Source: Octopus vulgaris (taxonomy: Eukaryota). From it: a stretch of DNA of 64,000 nt. Under the pieces are notes generated by a model. That model was not told where the DNA came from and did no database searches. It was given only the letters and a program-made list of their open reading frames with translations. Where the stretch lies: the NCBI GenBank assembly GCA_951406725.2, contig OX597822.1, positions 8,618,001 through 8,682,000 on the forward strand, given 5' to 3'. This document shows positions 4,857-57,045 of the stretch, in pieces. How positions within the stretch are numbered: position 1 is the stretch's first letter; each line of letters starts with the position of its first letter. The translations under genes and the position numbers were made by a program.

Positions 4857-6000
4857 CCAAAATTACATAGAAATATCGTGAAATACTAACGAGTAAATTA
4901 ATTCAATAAAAGTGCCATTGGCTTCAACTACGGCCTCCAATCGCATTCGGAATCTCGTGCAAATTTTCTGGATGGTCTCCTTGTCTAAGTTTGTGAACGC
5001 TACCATAATCCCTGCCCTCAGTTAATCTCTGGTGTTTCATCTTCTGTCTCTCGCTCAACGGCGCCCCATACATAATAATCAAGGCGATTGGTGTTTGTGG
5101 TGTTAGGTGACCAGATGGTAGGGGTGGTGTGGTCAAGGAAATTGTCTGACTGCCATGACTGTATACTCTTCCAACTGTGACATGGTGCAGAGTCTTGTTC
5201 CCAGACATAGGGTCTTCCAGCAGCCACTTTCTTGACCCAGGGCAGCACTTCCTCCTCCAGGCACTTGTTATAGGCCTCCGTGTTTAGTCTGAGACCGTGT
5301 GAGAATATGATTGGAGGCATAAGGTCGCCATCACAAGTGATCACTCCAAATTTCACGATGTTGATTGGATGTTTGATTTTAATCACTCTCGGTACATGTT
5401 TTGGGTACAAAGCAAGCGAAAGTTTGTTTTGTGTGTTCACCACCTTCTCATCACAGAAATATTTCCCGTCTGAGACAAACCAAAGCATGTTCGATTGGAG
5501 GGGATGCTTGAGTTTGTTCAAAAGTTTCGTAGCACGGTCTTTCCTCTAGTCGTTGATGACTTGGTATGAAAATTAGCCCTTTCCCGTCTTCTATGAGGAA
5601 TACCGAATGTCTTCATGCAGTACTTGCCTGATACGAAACTCCCATGTCGCTGGTGATGAGCCTGATTGACTTGGAAGGATCGTTGTCAACCATGGCCTGG
5701 ATCTCACCAACAAATTCAGTTCTTTTCTTATCAGAAGGATCACAGTGAGTTTTTCGAGATGCTGTACCTTCGAAATCACCATTAGACTCATCCAACTCTT
5801 TCCGAATGCTCTGCACTATCCTCAGATTGACACCGAAGCACTCAGAAAAGCTCCTATTGGGGCTTCCGGTGCGAATGCCAAACGGTACATCATGTCGTTT
5901 CCAAATTCCTGGCAGAGGGAATTGCCACATGGTGCTGGATGTCTCACATACAGTGCCCAGATGACCCTACTGCACTGAAAATGAAAAGCAAGCAATGGGC
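4857..6000 (-). mobile_element. Tc1/mariner superfamily, DD37D (maT/Bmmar1-like) transposase pseudogene
   Basis: ORF 5018-5521 has WFVSD, WEQDSAPCH and WSPN..NRLDYYVWG. I count 37 residues between the second and third Asp. The N-terminal DNA-binding region lies in ORF 5613-5930 and is frameshifted. Confidence 0.85.
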
Positions 6001-11492: not shown

Positions 11493-12897
11493 TAAATGGA
11501 TGTGTGTATTTTTCCCTTCTTTACAATTTACACGGAAAAAATAGATAAACCGTTACCAGGGCAGCAAAATTCACACTAGTTATACGGACTTAACATCCTG
11601 TTTGTAAGGGTAGAAACTCCGGCTTGGTGTGAAATATTTTGTATAATATATATAAATAAATAAATGGAATGAAACGCAGGTATTATTCAAATTGTTTTGA
11701 AGGTAGAGTAAGCGATCATCACGGTATAGACCTCCATTGATACTTGAGAACTTGTCTGCAGAACTTCCTATCGTGACATCAAACCCATTGGGTGTATCTT
11801 TACGGACCCACAGCTTGATATGGTAGATTTTCTGGCGGCCGACACGATAATAATCTCTTCCCTGGTGAGACTACCTTTGTTATGAGCTAGCCAGAGTGCC
11901 TTATTAAGTACTTTTGGGTTGATGGAGGAATAGAATCTAGAAATGTCAAACTGGATAATAAACTTAGTGCTCCTATTATTACTAATGGAACTAAACCAAT
12001 CGACAACTTGGAGTGAATTGGACCATAAACTAAGTTTTAACTTTTTAATTAAGGTAGAAATATATTTATCTAGAATATTTTTATCAAGTAAACCAATGTC
12101 AGAGCTAGAAGGAGAGATAAGTCTTAAGGATGGGTTATTAAAAAATTTTTTTCGTGATCTTTTAAAATAAAACGAGGTTGCTTAGTATCTTCATCAGTAA
12201 ATTATACTTCTCCATAATTTTCTTAGCTTCAAGGTTGGTTTTCCTGAGTGCACCTTTGCCGGTAATCCTATAAATTTTTTGAATTTATTTTTTAAACAAT
12301 TCCAAGTAATAATCCCTGTTAAGTTTATACAGGTTTCCCGTTTTATCTAATTGTACTAGTTTACTATCCATGCTATGAGATTCCTTGGTGATATTGTGAA
12401 GATACCTCAGATGTTTATTCCTTAGGGGTGATCGGTGAAATTTTATATTTCTCACAATAGACCAAAGATCATCTTCAAACGGTTTCAACCTTTCGTTAGG
12501 TGGAGGATTATTTTTAGATTTACATAATTCCTTAAATTCAGAAGTTATATCATTAGTGGGCTGTTGAAGGTGCTTAATGTCAAAGAAAAAAGTGAGCCAT
12601 CTGATACGGTTAATAACGGAATTTTTCTTATTAAAGAGTTGCTTAAAGGAATAATCCTTTGGGAAAATCGGCATATCCTTAAGGGATGCGTTTAAATTAA
12701 ATAACTCCGTATGCGGTAACTATTTTATTAGCAGGTTATATGGAAACCTGTTTGAAGTATATATAAATGGATGTGGGAATTTTTCCCTTGTTTACAGTAA
12801 ACACGGAAAAATAGATGAACAGTTACCATGGCAGCAGTCTTCGAAATATGTCGGAAGTAAAAGGATTTGAATAACACCTGCGTTTAACTCTATTTAT
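11493..12897 (-). mobile_element. Penelope-like retroelement fragment (probably Naiad-type), N-terminus and part of RT
   Basis: ORF 12285-12674 (SLKDMPI..RIRWLTFFF..LKPFEDDL..DKTGNLYKL). Further minus-strand translation gives LKDHEKNF.NNPSLRLISP..ILDK..VDWF..FIIQFDISRFYSSI..WVRK..FDVTIGS. Direct repeats lie at 11493-11566 and 12764-12836, and an inverted repeat at 11660-11692 and 12865-12897. Confidence 0.8.
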
Positions 12898-17410: not shown

Positions 17411-17613
17411 ACAATTGCAGCGTGGAAGGTGTTTATAAGCCATTTAAGAAACACACAAAATGCAGAGATGCAGCACGGATTTTTGTCAGCGAACAGGTCG
17501 CGGATTTTAGCGACGAAAATATTTTGACAAATTAAACTTAGTTGTTGAAGTGAACCGAACAGCTTTTGTGTGTTTCTTAAATGGCTTATAAACACCTTCT
17601 ACGCTGCAATTGT
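17411..17613. mobile_element. Small element with 50-bp terminal inverted repeats; an extra inverted copy lies at ~18050-18130
   Basis: acaattgcagcgtggaaggtgtttataagccatttaagaaacacacaaaa (17411-17460) is inverted at 17564-17613 with one mismatch. 18050-18130 is the reverse complement of ~17525-17605. Confidence 0.75.
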
Positions 17614-18000
17614 ATATAAATATATATATATATATTAGTCGTAAGACACTTGCTGTTTTTACCATTATTGCTTTTGTATTTCACGTTTTTGTATTTCATT
17701 ATTGTTTTTTGTCTTTTATATTCGTGTGGCACCGTCCGTTTTGCTGTCCCTGTGTTCGTATGCATTCGATCCTTCTTCCAGGAAATCTACGCTCCTAGCT
17801 TAGTTTTTCTAATGCTCGTTGCTTAGTTTTTCCTGGAGAGCTGGCCGGTTCTAGTAATCTCAAGATTAATCAGCCGAAATTACTACGTTGATCCGGTTCT
17901 TGACTGAAGACTAAGGGCTTCGAATGTCCTGTCTGTGTTTGTTGTATCGTCTTCTAAGTTTTTATGCGTTCTTGTCTCAGTTTGTATTTTTCTACATATC

Positions 18001-18051
<51 letters not shown>

Positions 18052-18127
18052 CGTGGATGGTGTTTATAAGCCATTTAAGAAACACACAAAAGCTGTTCGA
18101 TTCACTTCAACATCTAAGTTTAATTTG

Positions 18128-18194
<67 letters not shown>

Positions 18195-21069: not shown

Positions 21070-22460
21070 AAGTTGCGGCCAAAATGTTCAGAACGGCATT
21101 GTTTTCGTCAGAAAAGTAAGTATGAGTTTTTATCAAAGTGGTTTTATATTCTATAATTTTTACAGACACTAAATACAATATTAATTGTTATTGTCTGAGA
21201 TTTTGGTGTAATTTGAGATGATAATACAAAAGTTATGAATGATTTAGTGATTTACTGCAAAACCCATGGCGGCCAAAATAATCAGAACGGTTGACAAAAT
21301 AACAAAATAATCAAAAATGACAGAGAATACTAGAATTATTTAATATTTAGTGTGAAGCCCTTTAGCTTCAATCACACTCTGACATCTTTGACCGCATGAG
21401 GAAATTAAATTTTCAATTTCTTGCTGGGGGAACTTATTCCATTCTCCCTGAAGGGCATTCCATAATTGCTCAGTTGTTTTAGGATTTCTGGCTTTCGAAC
21501 GTTCTCCTAGAATATTCCATACATTTTCAATAGGATTGAGATCTGGGCTTTCAGCAGGCCAATTCATAACAATAACCTTTTCAGCCTTAAAGAAGTTCAT
21601 GACCACCTTAGCCTTGTGACATGGGGCATTGTCCTGCATGAGTATGGGTGGTCGCTTAGTTGAATTTCTTAGCACAGGCAAGACATGATCTTTTACAAGT
21701 TGTTTATAAACTCCTGCATTTACCTTTCCATGTAATCGCACCAAAGGGCCCACACCATCTCCAGATATCATCCCCAAACCATGACACTTCCTCCACCGAA
21801 TTTAACACTAGTCTTAAGGCATTTAGGCGACAATTTTTCACCTACTTTTCTACGAACGTACCTTTTCCCACCTGAGCCAAATAACATAAACTTAGATTCT
21901 TCACTGAAATGCACCGTTTGCCATTTTTCTAGAGACCACAACACATGTTTGGTTGCAAAGTTAAGACGACACTTTTTTATTCTTGGAGCTGATCAGTGGC
22001 TTAACTGTAGGTGCTCTTGCTTGTAGGTCATGTTTCAACTAAACGACGAGACACAGTTTTTCGAGATAAAGTTTTCTTCAATACAATGCTCATTTTCCGA
22101 GAAACAGCAGCAGCAGTTTTAAATCTGTCCTTTTTAACCAACTTTCCCATAGCACGATCTTCTCTCTTGGTTGTTTTTCTTGGCCTACCTGTAAACTTTC
22201 TAGCTTCACACGAACAACAATCATCGTAGACCTTAAGAATACCGTGTACAACACTTTTTGACTTGTTAACAATCTTTGCAATAGATCCAATACTTAAATT
22301 ATCCTTCCTTCGAAGCTTAATAATCTGCTGACGAATTGGTAACGGAGTAAGTGGCATTATATTAACAAAGTACACTGCAAATATTCTTACTAATGTTTAG
22401 TAAACGAACCGTCACGTAAACAAATTCAAAACATCAGGATCACGTGACCTAGTGATTTGA
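21070..22460 (-). mobile_element. Tc1-like DD34E transposon with frameshifted transposase
   Basis: ORF 22028-22375 (HTH, TGRPRKTT). A frameshifted linker reads KWQTVHFSEESKF..GGGSVMVWG, with the first D mutated to E. ORF 21340-21777 has QDNAPCH-(34 aa spacing)-WPAESPDLNPIENVW..KGLHTKY. The 3' terminal region carries two 22-bp direct repeats. Confidence 0.9.
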
Positions 22461-27049: not shown

Positions 27050-27633
27050 GGCAAATGAAAGACGGAAGATGGAATACACGAGAATTTGTTATTAATCACG
27101 ACAATTGTTTCGTCACATCTAGCATCAATTCCTCATGGATGGGACACTCAACAACTAATTCAGGAGCATCCGGTGGTAAAGATGTATCTCGCCGGGTGGT
27201 AGATAAATACAACTCACTAAAATGACTGTTCCACAATGCAACTTTCCGTTTTGTAATAAAAAAAAACATCCAGACGGAAGAAATAACTTCATTTATGTAG
27301 ATAAAAATAAAATCACAGACGGCTAAAAGAGAAACGAACACGCAATCTAGCGAGAAAGATGATTTTATTTTTGATCTTCTATTTAAATGAAGGTATTTCC
27401 TCCGTCTGGCTGCTTTTTCTTTCTACAAAACGGTAGGTTGCATTGCAGAGCAGTCACTTTAACGAGTTGTATCTATTTATCACCCGACGAGATACATCTG
27501 CATCCCCGGATGCTCCTGAACCAGTTGTTGAGTGTCCCACCCTTGAGCTTTCGATGCTAGATGTGTCGAAACAATTGTCGTGATTAATTCTAAATTCGAG
27601 TATATTCCATCTTCCTCTTTTATTTGCCATATA
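27045..27633. mobile_element. Foldback/MITE-like element with ~270-bp inverted arms and a 46-bp spacer
   Basis: Arm 27045-27314 is the diverged reverse complement of 27361-27633, with TA at both ends. The two arms give similar translations in ORFs 26980-27225(+) and 27454-27645(-). Confidence 0.85.
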
Positions 27634-29890: not shown

Positions 29891-29990
29891 AAGTACTCTA
29901 TATTATAGTACATCGGATAACAAAGAAATCAAGAGACAGAGGACCATCAAGTGTTAGCCTGAGTGATAAAAATATTCTGAAGGAGAGATG

Positions 29991-30366
29991 AGGAATGGAA
30001 GCACTCCGTCGGTTACGACGGTGAGGGTTCCGGTTGATTCGAATCAACGGAACAGCCTGCTCGTGAAATTAACGTGTAAGTGGCTGAGCACTCCACAGAC
30101 ACGTGCACCCTTAACATAGTTCTCGGGGATATTCAGCGTGACACAGAGAGTGAAAAGGCCGGCCCTTTGAAATAAAGGTACAACAGAAACAGGATGTAAG
30201 AGTGAGAGAAAGTTGTGGTGAAAGAGTACAGCAGGGATCACCACCATCCCCTGCCGGAACCTCGTGGAACTTTAGGTGTTTTCGCTCAATAAGCATTCAC
30301 AACGCCCGGTCTGGGAATCGAAACCGCGAGTCCGCTGCCCTAACCACTGGGCCAGTGCGCCTCCAC
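29991..30366 (-). mobile_element. tRNA-derived SINE (head A + tail X) flanked by a 97-bp direct repeat
   Basis: Minus-strand head ggaggcgcactggcccagtggttagggcagcggactcgcggtttcgattccc (A and B boxes). The body is shared with 53924-54218 and the tail with 39721-40049. Flanking repeats lie at 29894-29990 and 30367-30463. Confidence 0.85.
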
Positions 30367-30933
30367 TACTCTATATTGTAGTACATCGGATACCAAAGAA
30401 ATCGAGAGACAGAGGACCATCAAGTGTTAGCATGAGTGATGAAAAGATTCTGAAGGAGAGATGTAACGATTGTTTCTCTAGTAATCAGAAAACAGCTAGA
30501 TACCCAAGCTGTTTTCTGCGAGGCTGAAGACTAAGAGCTGAGAAACATATTTGTCGTTTAGCCAGTGGTTTACCCATTTTCAACGGTCTGTCTTTTCGTC
30601 CTACTTCTATGAAGACAAACATTTGATGCTTTATTCCTTTAATGAGTTTTCATTCAAAACTCGCTACGTTTACAGGCGATTCTTTTTCGAGAAATTGGTA
30701 CTCTATGTTTGACTCCTTCTATGAAAGTAAAATCATTTCATATTTCTGCTGCAGCTTCTCTGAAACGATCCATTGAGAAAGCAGAGAGACTCTCAATCAT
30801 ACGGTTGGTTATGCTAATCTTAGTCATTTTCAAGTCTTGTCTGTACTTGAACATATTTACGCAAGGACACTTAGAAAATAATTTTTCAGATGTCCATAGC
30901 CTTATATAAAATGTTGATGCAGGAGATATAGAG

Positions 30934-31346
30934 AATACCAAACGAGTTCCCTATGGATACCGTATTTATTACGACGAGTGGTTTGTAAACGTATCTAACG
31001 AGCGAAAGCGAGTTAGATACGTTTACAAGCCACGAGTTGTAATAAATACGGTATCCATAGGGAATGAGTTTGGTATTTTATTTATTACACACGAATAAAC
31101 GACCATATTTTATTAACCCAATAACTAAATTCTTCACGTTTAGTTGTAACTTATGAATGACAAAAGTAGTGCCGTCACCGTGACCTCAAGTCATCACCAT
31201 GGATTGACCAATCAGAAGCAGCGCTGTCACCGTGACCTCGGGTCATCACCATGGATTGACCAATCAGAAGCAGCCCTCGTATTATCTGACATATGTTAGA
31301 TACTAAAAATATCTCAAAGTGTTCTCACTCACATGTGTGTAATAAA
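30934..31346 (+). mobile_element. Non-autonomous palindromic element: 144-nt G.A-mismatch hairpin, 12-bp IR and 52-bp tandem repeat (possibly Crypton-like, unverified)
   Basis: Hairpin 30934-31077 is centred on GCGAAAGC (31002-31009). IR tttattacacac (31081-31092) pairs with gtgtgtaataaa (31335-31346). Tandem units lie at 31171-31222 and 31223-31274. Confidence 0.7.
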
Positions 31347-31487
31347 ATATTGTTAACGAACCTACATTCTATATTTCGTTTTCCATGACATTTGTGTCAG
31401 AGTGTAATAGTCGAGACTATTTTTTCTTGCTATTTATGGTGATTGAGTTCCTGAAACAATTTTCCTTTAAATATATTAATGAGCCAT

Positions 31488-31726
31488 AAAACGTCGGTGA
31501 GCTGGCAGAATCGTTAGCACGCCGGGCGAAATGCGTAGCCGTATTTCGTCTGCCGTTACGTGTTCTGAGTTCAAATTCTGCCGAGGTCGACTTTGTCTTT
31601 CATCCTTTCGGGGTCGATAAATTAAGTACAAGTTACGCACTGAGGTCGATGTAATCGACTTAATCCCTTTGTGTCTGTCCTTGTCTGTCCCCTCTACGTT
31701 TAGCTCCTTGTGGGTAGTTAAGAAAT
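31488..31726 (+). mobile_element. tRNA-derived SINE with Nin-like central domain and 17-bp TSD
   Basis: Head gagctggcagaatcgttagcacgccggg..gagttcaaattc; core gaggtcgactttg..tttcatcctttcggggtcgataaa. TSD atatattaatgagccat lies at 31471-31487 and 31727-31743. Confidence 0.9.
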
Positions 31727-32357
31727 ATATATTAATGAGCCATTGACAATACTCTTACACGTATGTTCGCCAGAAAACAGAATGTTGAGTACAGAAACGG
31801 AGGCGTTATCTATCCAATATACTAAATTCGATTGCTGACGCACTAGGTGATACTCAAAGATGCTGCCACGGGGAATTCCAAGTTTTGCAGTTGGAAACTT
31901 TTCAAATGAGGGCTTCGCTGTAACCCAACCCACTTTTTGTGCTCTCAGATTGCATATCCGAGAATGTTCAACATTGTCTTGATCCCTTTGTGGTCGATAA
32001 AACACGTTACAGAAAACTGGGACTAATCGGAATATTACTGCTTAGTGAGACATGAGTTTTTTAATGTTATGTGTACCGGTTCATGAGTTGGCAGGCAGCA
32101 ATGGGCGTGATGACATTGGTGCTAAATTGTAAAAGTGGCCGCCTTTTACATACAGTGACGAAGATGAAAGAAAAACTTGCTTCTGTGGGTAACTGGCAGA
32201 TCTTCTCTAAATCTACGCAATCCAGCGTATAGAGATGACATACATTCTTCAAGCGCAGGAATGGAGATGATACACATACATATGTATACGTATATACACA
32301 CATACACACAAGCACGACACATATTTCGTTATTTATGTGTGTTTGAGTGTGTGTGTG

Positions 32358-45368: not shown

Positions 45369-46760
45369 AGTTTGACATTTGCTTTATATTTGTACAAGTT
45401 GGCTCCAAGTCTCACCCAGAGACCTCAAGAGACAACAGGTTGGAAGTTCGTGATGTTGCTATGCTTAGTGTGCCATATATTTGGTTTTGTATTTAGTGTT
45501 GTACTAGTGAATGTCTAAAAAAAACAAACGAAAATTATGTTTGCTTTAAAACTTGAGATTACATAGAATGTATTTTGCGTAGGATATGAGCGGTTCCCAT
45601 GAGCACTATCTTTTGAATTTCTGCTATTTTGGGGTTTCCTGGTATCTGAGTTTGGTAGCGATCAGCCTATTTGCATCTATCTTTCTGTCAGTTTGAATGG
45701 AGAAGTTCCAGAGGAGTGAGATGTGTCATTTTCAAGCACTGGAGTTGGTTTATGTTCCCAGCAGATTTTTTCATGGGGCAAATCCAGGTTTTTGCAGATT
45801 ACCCAGTGAATATATTGTTCAGCTCTATCATGCATGTTGAGATACTCTGTAGGCGCTAGAAGACTGCACTTGGAGACAACATGATCAATGGTTTCATTAT
45901 GTTGTTGACATACGCGACATGTTAGGCTACTGCCGTTCTTTAATATGTTGGCCTGGTAGTTCCTTGTTGGTAGGCATTGATCTTGAGCTGCTATGATAAA
46001 CCCTTCTGTTTCAGATTTTAAGCCAGAGGCCATTAGCCATTGATGGGTCAGGGCTTTGTCAACATTTGCATTATTCGCTCTCTCTTTGGGTATTTGCCAT
46101 AGAGAGGTTTTTCTTGCCATTTATCATTCAGAATATCTAAGGCAGCAGTTTTAGCACGGGTTTTCATGCGCTTAGCTTTTTCTGTGTTTGTTTCTTCTAT
46201 GTCTAATTCCGAAATTTGTTGTATTCGGAATTCACTTAGATATTCCTTTGCCTGTTTTGTTACTGAGTATGATGCTTTCTTGTTTTCATGTTTTGAGACA
46301 AATTTTAACATCCAGTCCTCAGTGTTTTTCAGGTAGGTGTCTAGGCCAATTGCAGCAATCTTCATCGTTAATGCCAGTTGTAAAAGTCCACGGCCTCCCT
46401 CTTTTCTTGGCAGATAAAGTCGTTCTATATCTGCCTTAGGGTGGTGTATTCTATGGATTGTCAACAGTTTTCGTATTTGTCTGTGAAAATTACAAATTTC
46501 AGTAATTGACCAGTTACCGACATTGAAACTGTAAGTCACGACTGGTATGGCTAAAGTATTGATCGCTTCGATCCTGTTTCTCGCATTCAGCTCTGTCTTG
46601 AGTATTGCTCTTACTCTGCGATAACATTCTCTCCTGATCCTTTCCTTCATCACTGAATGCCTTATTCCGTCCCCTTCAATTACCCCTAGGTACTTGTAGC
46701 TCTCCGCTGGGTTTAATTATTTTATGACATTCTGCTGGTCAAGGTTAACGTTAGATGTTT
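45369..46760 (-). mobile_element. Dong/R4-clade LINE, 5'-truncated, with an internal deletion of the RLE core
   Basis: YKYLG; ORF 46048-46653 (HHPKADIERLYLPRKEGGRGL); ORF 45677-46120 (ETEGFIIAAQDQ, CCHC finger CRVC..ETIDHVVSKC). LWNFSIQTDRKIDANR then jumps to IPGNPKIAEIQKIVLMGTAHILRK. The 3' end abuts (TAA)n. Confidence 0.9.
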
Positions 46761-56152: not shown

Positions 56153-57045
56153 TATGAAAAGGTACCCAAAAGTAACCGCAAGTCTTCTCTGTGGGACAAG
56201 CCCCTGTAGGTCAGACTTCCGCCGCTAGAAGCTGCTTGATGTGACCCACGCATCAGTTTACGGAATGGCGTCGTCGTGTGACGTCGCACTGCCACGTGGT
56301 GCGTCTTTGTTTTAGAATGCTTCTTCCCTGTTCGTCGATTTTTTTCGATGACTGAAACGAAGGAGCAGCGTGCTTCCTTAGAATTCTATTTTCTACTGGG
56401 GAAAACGGAGGCCGAAACAGTTGTCATACTTCAAGCAGCTTACACTGACTTTGTGCCAAGGGCAAATCACAGTATTACGAGTGGGTTCCACGCTTTAGGA
56501 ATGGTCACTTTTCTCTTGAAGGCCAACCTCTTTCAGGACGACCGTCGATTTCCCCAAACGAATGAAAACATCATGAAAATTTATGAACTGATCCTGGAGG
56601 ACCGTCAACGTATAATTAACGAACTTGCTGATATGACTGGTGTATCCTGGAGCTCCTGCAAACGAATGTTAAGCGAGGAATTGCGAATGAAAAGAGTTGC
56701 CACAAAATTTGTACTTGACTTGCTTACGGAAGATCGAAAGCAGTCACGATTGAAATCGTGTTGTGAACTGAAAGTTGAATGTTGACTCGGACCTATTTTC
56801 GAAGATCATCAGTGGTGCAAAAACGCTGGTACTACGGAATATGCGTATGTGGAAGAGGTGAAGAAAACACGTCGGAGGCGTTGAAAGACATCACTTCGCA
56901 AGAGTTCCAGGACTGCTTCGAACAATGGATAACGTCATGCACTGCTCCAAATTGAGAATACTTTGAGGACGACAAAAAGTATAAACATGTAAAACTGAGG
57001 GAAATTCCAGTGTCTTTGGGGTACCCCCCACCCCACCCCCGTATA
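56153..57045 (+). mobile_element. mariner-like transposon, internally deleted
   Basis: ORF 56348-56785 (EQRASLEF..LGKT.AET..; EDRQ..ELADMTGVSWSSC..LSEELRMKRVATKFV..LLTEDRKQSRL). The C-terminal EFQDCFEQW..YFE follows after loss of most of the catalytic domain. Imperfect TIRs are ggtacccaaaag (~56161) and ctttggggtacc (~57014). Confidence 0.85.

Follow-up and report, generated by a model that had tools for sequence, protein, structure and literature searches.

CryptonA transposons, as described, encode one DUF3504 tyrosine recombinase with R-H-R-Y residues, have many non-autonomous derivatives, do not duplicate their target and possess no repeats at their outer termini (PMC3212892); the lack of terminal repeats was stated for animal Cryptons by Kojima and Jurka (2011; PMC3212892). 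Their mechanism of mobility is considered undemonstrated in a 2026 review, and a duplex circle is assumed (PMC13565253). Single-stranded intermediates have been shown for DIRS (PMC7192593). The octopus element analyzed here shares the listed CryptonA properties, but its end hairpin, GA tandems, internal complement, target dyad and strand bias are not mentioned in the consulted passages of PMC3212892.

The terms 'hairpin' and 'palindrom' are not applied to these ends in the available parts of PMC13465315 and PMC5753468. In a literature search covering titles and the first parts of abstracts, we found no description of these Crypton ends; Repbase and Dfam, which lay outside this search, may note the palindrome. 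Repbase calls some Eulor repeats self-complementary. The Crypton family is known already; the pairing with the far end, the target geometry and the strand bias are added here.

The hairpin and its predicted fold

The window is a stretch of 64,000 nt from Octopus vulgaris (contig OX597822.1, positions 8,618,001 to 8,682,000). An earlier note on its sequence had described a symmetric pairing over 70 positions with three GA/AG tandems, three G·T wobbles and a mini-hairpin cap, and we could confirm this description: the arm at 30934-31003 (i+j=62011) contains 61 Watson-Crick pairs, three G·T pairs (30946, 30973, and 30982) and three GA/AG tandems among its 70 positions. The parts of the hairpin are the following.

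30934..31003, plus strand: hairpin arm 1, with GA at 30944-45, 30976-77 and 31000-01 (fold and pairing count)
31008..31077, plus strand: hairpin arm 2, with GA at 31010-11, 31034-35 and 31066-67 (fold and pairing count)
31002..31009, plus strand: GCGAAAGC mini-hairpin cap (sequence; melting data in PMC13037366)

The fold has a z-score of -19.9, and none of 200 shuffled sequences folded equally well. The three tandems are found family-wide; GA loops restricted to the window copy, which the earlier note had named as an outcome adverse to its reading, were thus not what was observed. The wobbles fared differently. Most copies have A at position 30973 (74 of 77) and C at position 30982 (78 of 83); these two wobbles are decay of the window copy, and only the wobble at 30946 is a property of the family. 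Since two of the three wobbles are copy-specific decay, the wobble bias was dropped as a line of evidence.

It had also been claimed that the plus strand should fold much better than the minus strand. The folding model did not bear this out: values of -60.4 kcal/mol for the GA strand and -54.7 kcal/mol for the other strand were obtained with the window copy, a gap that is mostly due to the two decayed wobbles, and the corresponding values for an undecayed copy are -68.0 and -66.1 kcal/mol. The modelled gap amounts to 1-6 kcal/mol, and the other strand or neither strand is favored in two of 14 families. Since the folding model separates the strands so little, the preference for the GA strand rests on published oligonucleotide data: GCGAAAGC melts at a Tm of 76.5 °C as compared to 33 °C for GCTTTTGC (PMC13037366), and tandem G·A pairs are sheared in a pyrimidine-GA-purine context (PMC10085684).

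A non-autonomous CryptonA element and its full-length parent

A CryptonA transposon of the non-autonomous kind has the hairpin as one of its ends. The earlier note had proposed a recognition site or origin for a Crypton-like tyrosine recombinase or for an HUH/rolling-circle mobiliser; the Crypton guess holds, and the role of the hairpin as an element end and the stem across the joined ends were absent from the note. The features of the element and of the host DNA next to it are listed below.

30928..31345, plus strand being the GA strand and the parent's recombinase gene lying on the minus strand: non-autonomous CryptonA element of 418 bp (109 insertions, empty paralogous sites, and parent copies)
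30928..30933, plus strand: fixed 6-nt overlap ATAGAG at the hairpin end (at most one mismatch to ATAGAG or AGAGAG in 92/92 recognizable left ends)
31076..31092, plus strand: internal complementary region, a 7-nt spacer followed by the far-end complement (tandem-junction fold, family-specific match)
31137..31138, no strand: internal deletion junction, with about 2.05 kb including the recombinase gene missing (parent comparison; 2048-nt skip)
31174..31274, minus strand: two 52-bp repeats with a CCAAT-like box (our own label), upstream of the parent's gene (sequence)
31335..31345, plus strand: far terminus GTGTGTAATAA (complement of 31082-31092)
30921..30927, plus strand: host DNA, left half of the target dyad and first spacer base (insertion consensus)
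31346..31358, plus strand: host DNA, remaining target spacer and right half of the dyad (insertion consensus)

Judged by their sequence, the two 52-bp repeats are likely the promoter of the parent's gene. The Crypton family to which the hairpin belongs is young and has hundreds of copies in the octopus genome. This stretch of the window is repetitive (362 candidate copies; the 40 that were scored are 97-100% identical), and motifs near the two ends have 274 and 275 exact matches genome-wide. Non-autonomous copies greatly outnumber full-length ones, with about 275 matches per end versus seven full-length copies.

Longer copies contain pieces of one gene on the strand opposite to the GA strand, and seven copies of 2.3-2.5 kb carry this recombinase gene whole or nearly so. 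The parent protein (518-522 aa) matches DUF3504 and phage integrase. Two full-length loci each possess one reading frame of at least 150 aa, for which Pfam returned DUF3504, phage integrase and QRICH1 only; neither a reverse transcriptase, a DDE domain, a C-terminal GCR1_C domain nor an HUH nuclease was found among the frames and Pfam matches of the full-length copies. The HUH/rolling-circle alternative of the earlier note is not supported, because a single tyrosine recombinase frame is all that the full-length copies contain. The catalytic residues R266, K299, H394, R397, H420, and Y429 are kept in 47-50 of 50 homologues. The predicted fold is Cre-like (Z 16.2, rmsd 5.9, 273 aligned) and can also be superimposed, as a model, on IntI (2a3v; Z 12.4, rmsd 6.3, 247 aligned). 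The closest database match to the recombinase (97%) carries the label Octopus sinensis. Part of the hairpin center is missing from three of the full-length copies that have no stop in the domain, a point against a role of the hairpin as folded substrate.

Further observations concern the recombinase and its relatives. Residues 10-56 of the protein (P0001) form a confidently predicted beta-rich N-terminal domain in the full model that is present in only some relatives; a single-sequence model of this domain reached a pLDDT of 52, and no Atlas match was found. No hairpin of this kind lies within 1.5 kb of the other DUF3504 matches in the genome, which seem to be domesticated (L041, L043, L045, L047-L050, L037, L042, and L044); L037, L042, and L044 resemble exons belonging to a single gene, and a short Crypton copy is located close to them. 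None of 19 candidate recombinase relatives in viral contigs was confirmed. Near-perfect long palindromes lie within the recombinase genes of L110, L143, and L144, inside the gene match.

In the window, the element is flanked by two other dispersed repeats (29951-30400 and 31451-31750), the first of which lies between two copies of a host stretch of about 100 nt. A long inverted repeat with 238-nt arms that are 83% complementary (27064-27615) is MITE-like, and an inverted-repeat element at 17525-18130 has 111-nt arms that are 91% complementary and 384 nt apart. Fragments that, read by eye, resemble Tc1/mariner transposases and genes of non-LTR retrotransposons are located at 5018-5545, 21340-22396, 56282-56785, 45677-46716, and 11768-12719.

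Target site and the inherited strand

Comparison with empty paralogous sites showed no target duplication: among the seven listed, four were exact, two agreed within one base and one (L031) had four extra bases. There are no terminal inverted repeats at the outer termini. The target consensus of 109 insertions (with the number of insertions in brackets) reads A (85), T (89), A (109), a variable base, the cut, and A (74), followed by T (85) and A (62) at positions +8 and +9. It is a dyad whose symmetry is strongest when the spacer is taken as 8 nt (r 0.89, versus -0.24 to 0.56 for the remaining spacings), with the cut placed one base inside. A dyad with an 8-nt spacer that is cut one base inside is the geometry of Cre-type sites.

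Target and element share no spacer. We selected 100 copies through a motif that lies outside the hairpin; all 92 recognizable left ends among them carry the element's own spacer, and the right side is fully equal to it in one of 88 copies, which is the tandem described below. With no spacer homology, a two-strand exchange should leave either spacer at either junction; only one type is present. The left and right counts together therefore indicate that only the exchange of the GA strand is inherited. A target-derived base at spacer position 2 was not significant (p = 0.067). In assembled contigs of four runs, empty-site joints were present and an end-to-start joint was not among the 15 joints listed, contigs being unable to show absence.

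A one-strand bias as such does not demand a single-stranded substrate. The recombinase could act with strand bias on double-stranded DNA (copy-out, copy-in, as bacterial SEs and Tn554 do), in which case the far end, the internal region and the arms would be protein-binding repeats or a transient cruciform, and the GA steps would be sequence motifs. SEs indeed show a one-strand bias with nicked duplex circles (PMC10214605), and the prevailing model for Cryptons is that of a duplex circle (PMC13565253). SEs, however, move a flank-derived spacer, whereas the Crypton spacer is fixed. Taking this together with the points raised in the following sections, we consider action on duplex DNA unlikely.

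Complementarity of the hairpin flank and the far end

The sequence directly beyond the hairpin is complementary to the element's far end, and this holds family by family; a circular single strand would consequently fold across its own junction. The sole head-to-tail tandem found in the genome (L181/L182; L182:1329-1351) displays the predicted circle junction, and in its fold the stem continues for 14 bp over the junction with a 2-nt bulge. In 10 families, the far end matched the internal region of its own family at 18.1 of 22 positions versus 12.6 in other families (0 of 100,000 permutations were as high), and the own-family match was the strict maximum in seven of the 10, with anchors picked by the best own match, which favors the diagonal. 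Automated windows at 19 loci, some of them misplaced, gave 15.9 versus 13.9 of 20 positions (p = 0.004). At the single-copy locus L143, the internal region located the far end blind (19/20).

In the folded junction, 9 nt stand opposite 7 nt. This asymmetry of the spacer was recovered in nine of 24 loci, with one false match and 14 loci unparsed. Inverted arms that bind protein would likewise covary by family, as a recombinase working on duplex DNA would have it. In duplex form, however, the spacer at the junction is 9 bp long and its two halves are unlike, as opposed to the 8-bp target.

GA tandems across Crypton families

Relatives were fetched by protein similarity alone (82 loci), and the 52 loci with at least 450 nt downstream were surveyed for a hairpin. 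A segment folding below -30 kcal/mol is present in 29 of them; the other 23 are without a strong downstream hairpin, some because the sequence ends early and some having the hairpin at the opposite end. Among the 63 two-by-two loops in the 29 hairpin loci, 40 are GA/GA and three are TC/TC, the latter (L114, L138) sitting in apparent separate inserted elements. GA exceeds TC in 12 of 13 families, and the reverse is found in none. In a set of 14 families with one copy per family, there are 60 GA arms, and every one of them is CGAG, TGAG or CGAA, i.e., pyrimidine-GA-purine. The stems differ between families, and GA/GA recurs down to 33% protein identity. This supports the earlier note's idea of selection on the structure, with GA/GA loops kept while the stems change. 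Since the families are kin, this pattern reflects the persistence of one design rather than repeated invention. Recognition of duplex DNA leaves unexplained why GA is mirrored in both arms, why the sheared-pair context is found in 60/60 arms and why the cap is one known for its stability in single strands.

For most families, the gene is encoded on the opposite strand, so that the GA strand is antisense. One clade (L119, L116, L093, and L094) differs in having its hairpin upstream of the gene, and there the GA strand is sense. The GA polarity accordingly follows the element ends, being that of the strand starting with the hairpin, and not the direction of the gene, with the reversed gene known from a single clade among families that share one origin. 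This finding bears on whether the hairpin acts as RNA, for instance in transcript control or as a precursor of small RNAs. Tandem G·A pairs and GNRA-like loops are stable in RNA too. However, the gene is reversed in one clade while the GA strand stays with the ends, no Rfam family was found near the hairpin at its gathering score, and the structure closes only across the end-to-end junction. A role as RNA is highly improbable. Of the two options in the earlier note, single-stranded DNA or RNA, the polarity speaks against RNA.

Several related structures were observed. In L134 (1881-2080), a hairpin begins like that of the octopus and is an almost perfect palindrome, either a converted copy or an assembly artefact. 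Other short, GA-studded hairpin elements lie near or in Crypton loci in either orientation (L066:~100-140, L076:~1460-1570, L114:1715-1914, and L138:1476-1675). The apex motif common to several Crypton families is also present in 31 viral contig stretches (L243-L273); in L254 it stands just before a TnpB gene, several other stretches share the L254 flanks, and four adjoin phage tail-tip genes. It may be a general stabiliser of single-strand hairpins. A search of the octopus genome for a second hairpin family with a GNA cap gave 12 matches, none of which was inside a long stem.

Arm-to-arm conversion within the hairpin

For the analysis of changes within the hairpin, eight of the 100 copies were set aside (four rearranged or decayed, four too little aligned), which left 83 independent insertions and nine passenger copies. 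In the 83 copies, 58 of 315 outer and middle GA sites are converted to the complement of the other arm, as compared to point changes at 102 of 8743 stem sites. The apex is flipped in 18 of 62 cases and deleted in 21 of 83 copies, and all six GA steps together with the loop are intact in only 14 of 83. The loss of GA pairs in so many copies is a point in favor of a duplex substrate.

The conversions suggest an origin during or soon after a jump. They fall with divergence (rho -0.32, p = 0.0035), they are absent from the nine passenger copies of one insertion (0/36, with shared ancestry), all conversion states occur within one deletion subfamily, and there is no clear sign of inheritance: in 52 short copies, the middle sites and the flips showed no clustering (p = 0.44, 0.43, and 0.13) and the outer sites were borderline (p = 0.056), both at low power. 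A model in which conversion takes place at every jump does not explain the seven full-length copies, two of which are also among the 83 and which have 0/26 conversions (p = 0.012).

Homogenised arms and inverted spacers are recognized signs of template switching (PMC8604942), which can lead to covarying stems even in the absence of selection (PMC8794818). Stems are built and repaired by this process, which is frequent in these copies, and the palindrome could be a neutral by-product of it, with the mismatches representing decay. At least one arm conversion or apex flip is present in 43 of 83 copies. Perfect palindromes or random mismatches in other copies had been named in the earlier note as a finding against its reading, and this is in part what the copies show; the changes are, however, block copies of the opposite arm and not random mismatches, which argues for pairing of the arms rather than for a neutral palindrome. 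Moreover, switching erases mismatches, yet GA/GA survives across families down to 33% protein identity, which points to selection on the copies that found lineages. The counts of GA/GA against TC/TC loops and the survey of arms in 14 families largely refute a neutral origin, which we regard as barely credible.

The same changes bear on another explanation, in which the GA hairpin does fold in single-stranded DNA, but its task is to prime or start the synthesis of a second strand or of a fold-back copy, after which the recombinase integrates a duplex circle, as proposed for DIRS. Mini-hairpins occur at single-strand priming sites (PMC13037366), and the internal region of DIRS is thought to rebuild the ends before conversion to duplex (PMC7192593). 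Conversions, flips and the fold-back copy in L239 (1259-1784), in which the sequence jumps to the other strand after the apex and the far terminus is found on both sides, show synthesis switching at the hairpin. On the other hand, integration of a duplex circle into a target lacking spacer homology should leave both junction types, of which we saw one, and the far-end pairing sits exactly at the crossover. We judge priming to be quite unlikely as the sole role; it can coexist with a role as folded substrate.

One insertion, multiplied as a passenger within another repeat, was observed in L011, L024, L027, L145-L147, L159, L163, L170, L172, L204, and L229; most of these copies share one apex deletion.

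Proposed mechanism

Our analysis leads us to propose that the hairpin is probably the folded single-stranded substrate of the element's tyrosine recombinase, as at integron attC. The GA strand, when single-stranded, would be folded by the cap and the sheared G·A pairs, with the other strand having weaker TC/TC loops. The region past the hairpin would pair with both ends, possibly as a splint like that of DIRS, and cutting and rejoining on the GA strand would yield a single-stranded circle and leave the donor to be restored. The folded junction, with its 9 nt opposite 7 nt, would mimic a duplex site and pair with the 8-bp target dyad. After one strand exchange, replication would resolve the junction, and template switching between the arms would be a by-product.

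From the anatomy of the element one can read exactly where it ends, the consensus of its target, where the cut falls, which strand is involved and which substrate is predicted, and the mechanism of Crypton mobility thereby becomes testable with oligonucleotides and one protein. If the proposal is true, tyrosine recombinases act on single strands in animal nuclei as well as in integrons and CTX. Genome engineering would have an interest in a compact enzyme able to insert DNA at a short dyad with neither a double-strand break nor a duplicated target.

Comparison with known systems

There is about an even chance, in our estimation, that animal CryptonA elements correspond, among eukaryotes, to integron cassettes and CTX phage: the tyrosine recombinase that they encode would excise and integrate a circular single strand that is a site only when folded, sheared G·A tandems and the cap would choose the strand, and ZMYM, QRICH1, and KCTD1 would derive from a domain whose original function was of this design. 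With integron attC/IntI, the Crypton likely shares a folded single strand with unpaired features, exchange of one strand and replicative resolution (PMC4792948); as in integrons, the exchange product of one strand alone is inherited (92/92 left ends, 109 insertions). In contrast to integrons, Cryptons are eukaryotic, each element has its own ends and gene, and the target is a loose genomic dyad. There is neither an attI nor a cassette array (the insertions are dispersed, with one tandem), and the fold closes only across the joined ends. In the CTX attP(+)/XerCD system, a circular single strand likewise folds into a mimic of a duplex site, but CTX relies on enzymes of its host and on a dif site that is fixed, whereas the Crypton encodes its own recombinase (PMC4792948).

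DIRS elements resemble the Crypton in having an internal stretch complementary to both ends and a eukaryotic tyrosine recombinase; the Crypton, however, lacks reverse transcriptase, gag and long terminal repeats, and DIRS are proposed to integrate as duplex (PMC7192593). In SEs (strand-biased circularizing elements) and Tn554, the exchange product of one strand also dominates, and tyrosine recombinases are the only recombinases involved. These elements differ by their four genes and nicked duplex circles, and by a flank-derived 6-bp spacer that passes from side to side, whereas the left spacer of the Crypton is fixed and the right one is equal in 1/88 (PMC10214605). Strand-specific hairpin ends, a lack of target duplication and, as proposed for the Crypton, single-stranded circles are likenesses to IS200/IS605 and Helitron elements, which depend on HUH enzymes of a type that the Crypton does not encode (PMC13565253).
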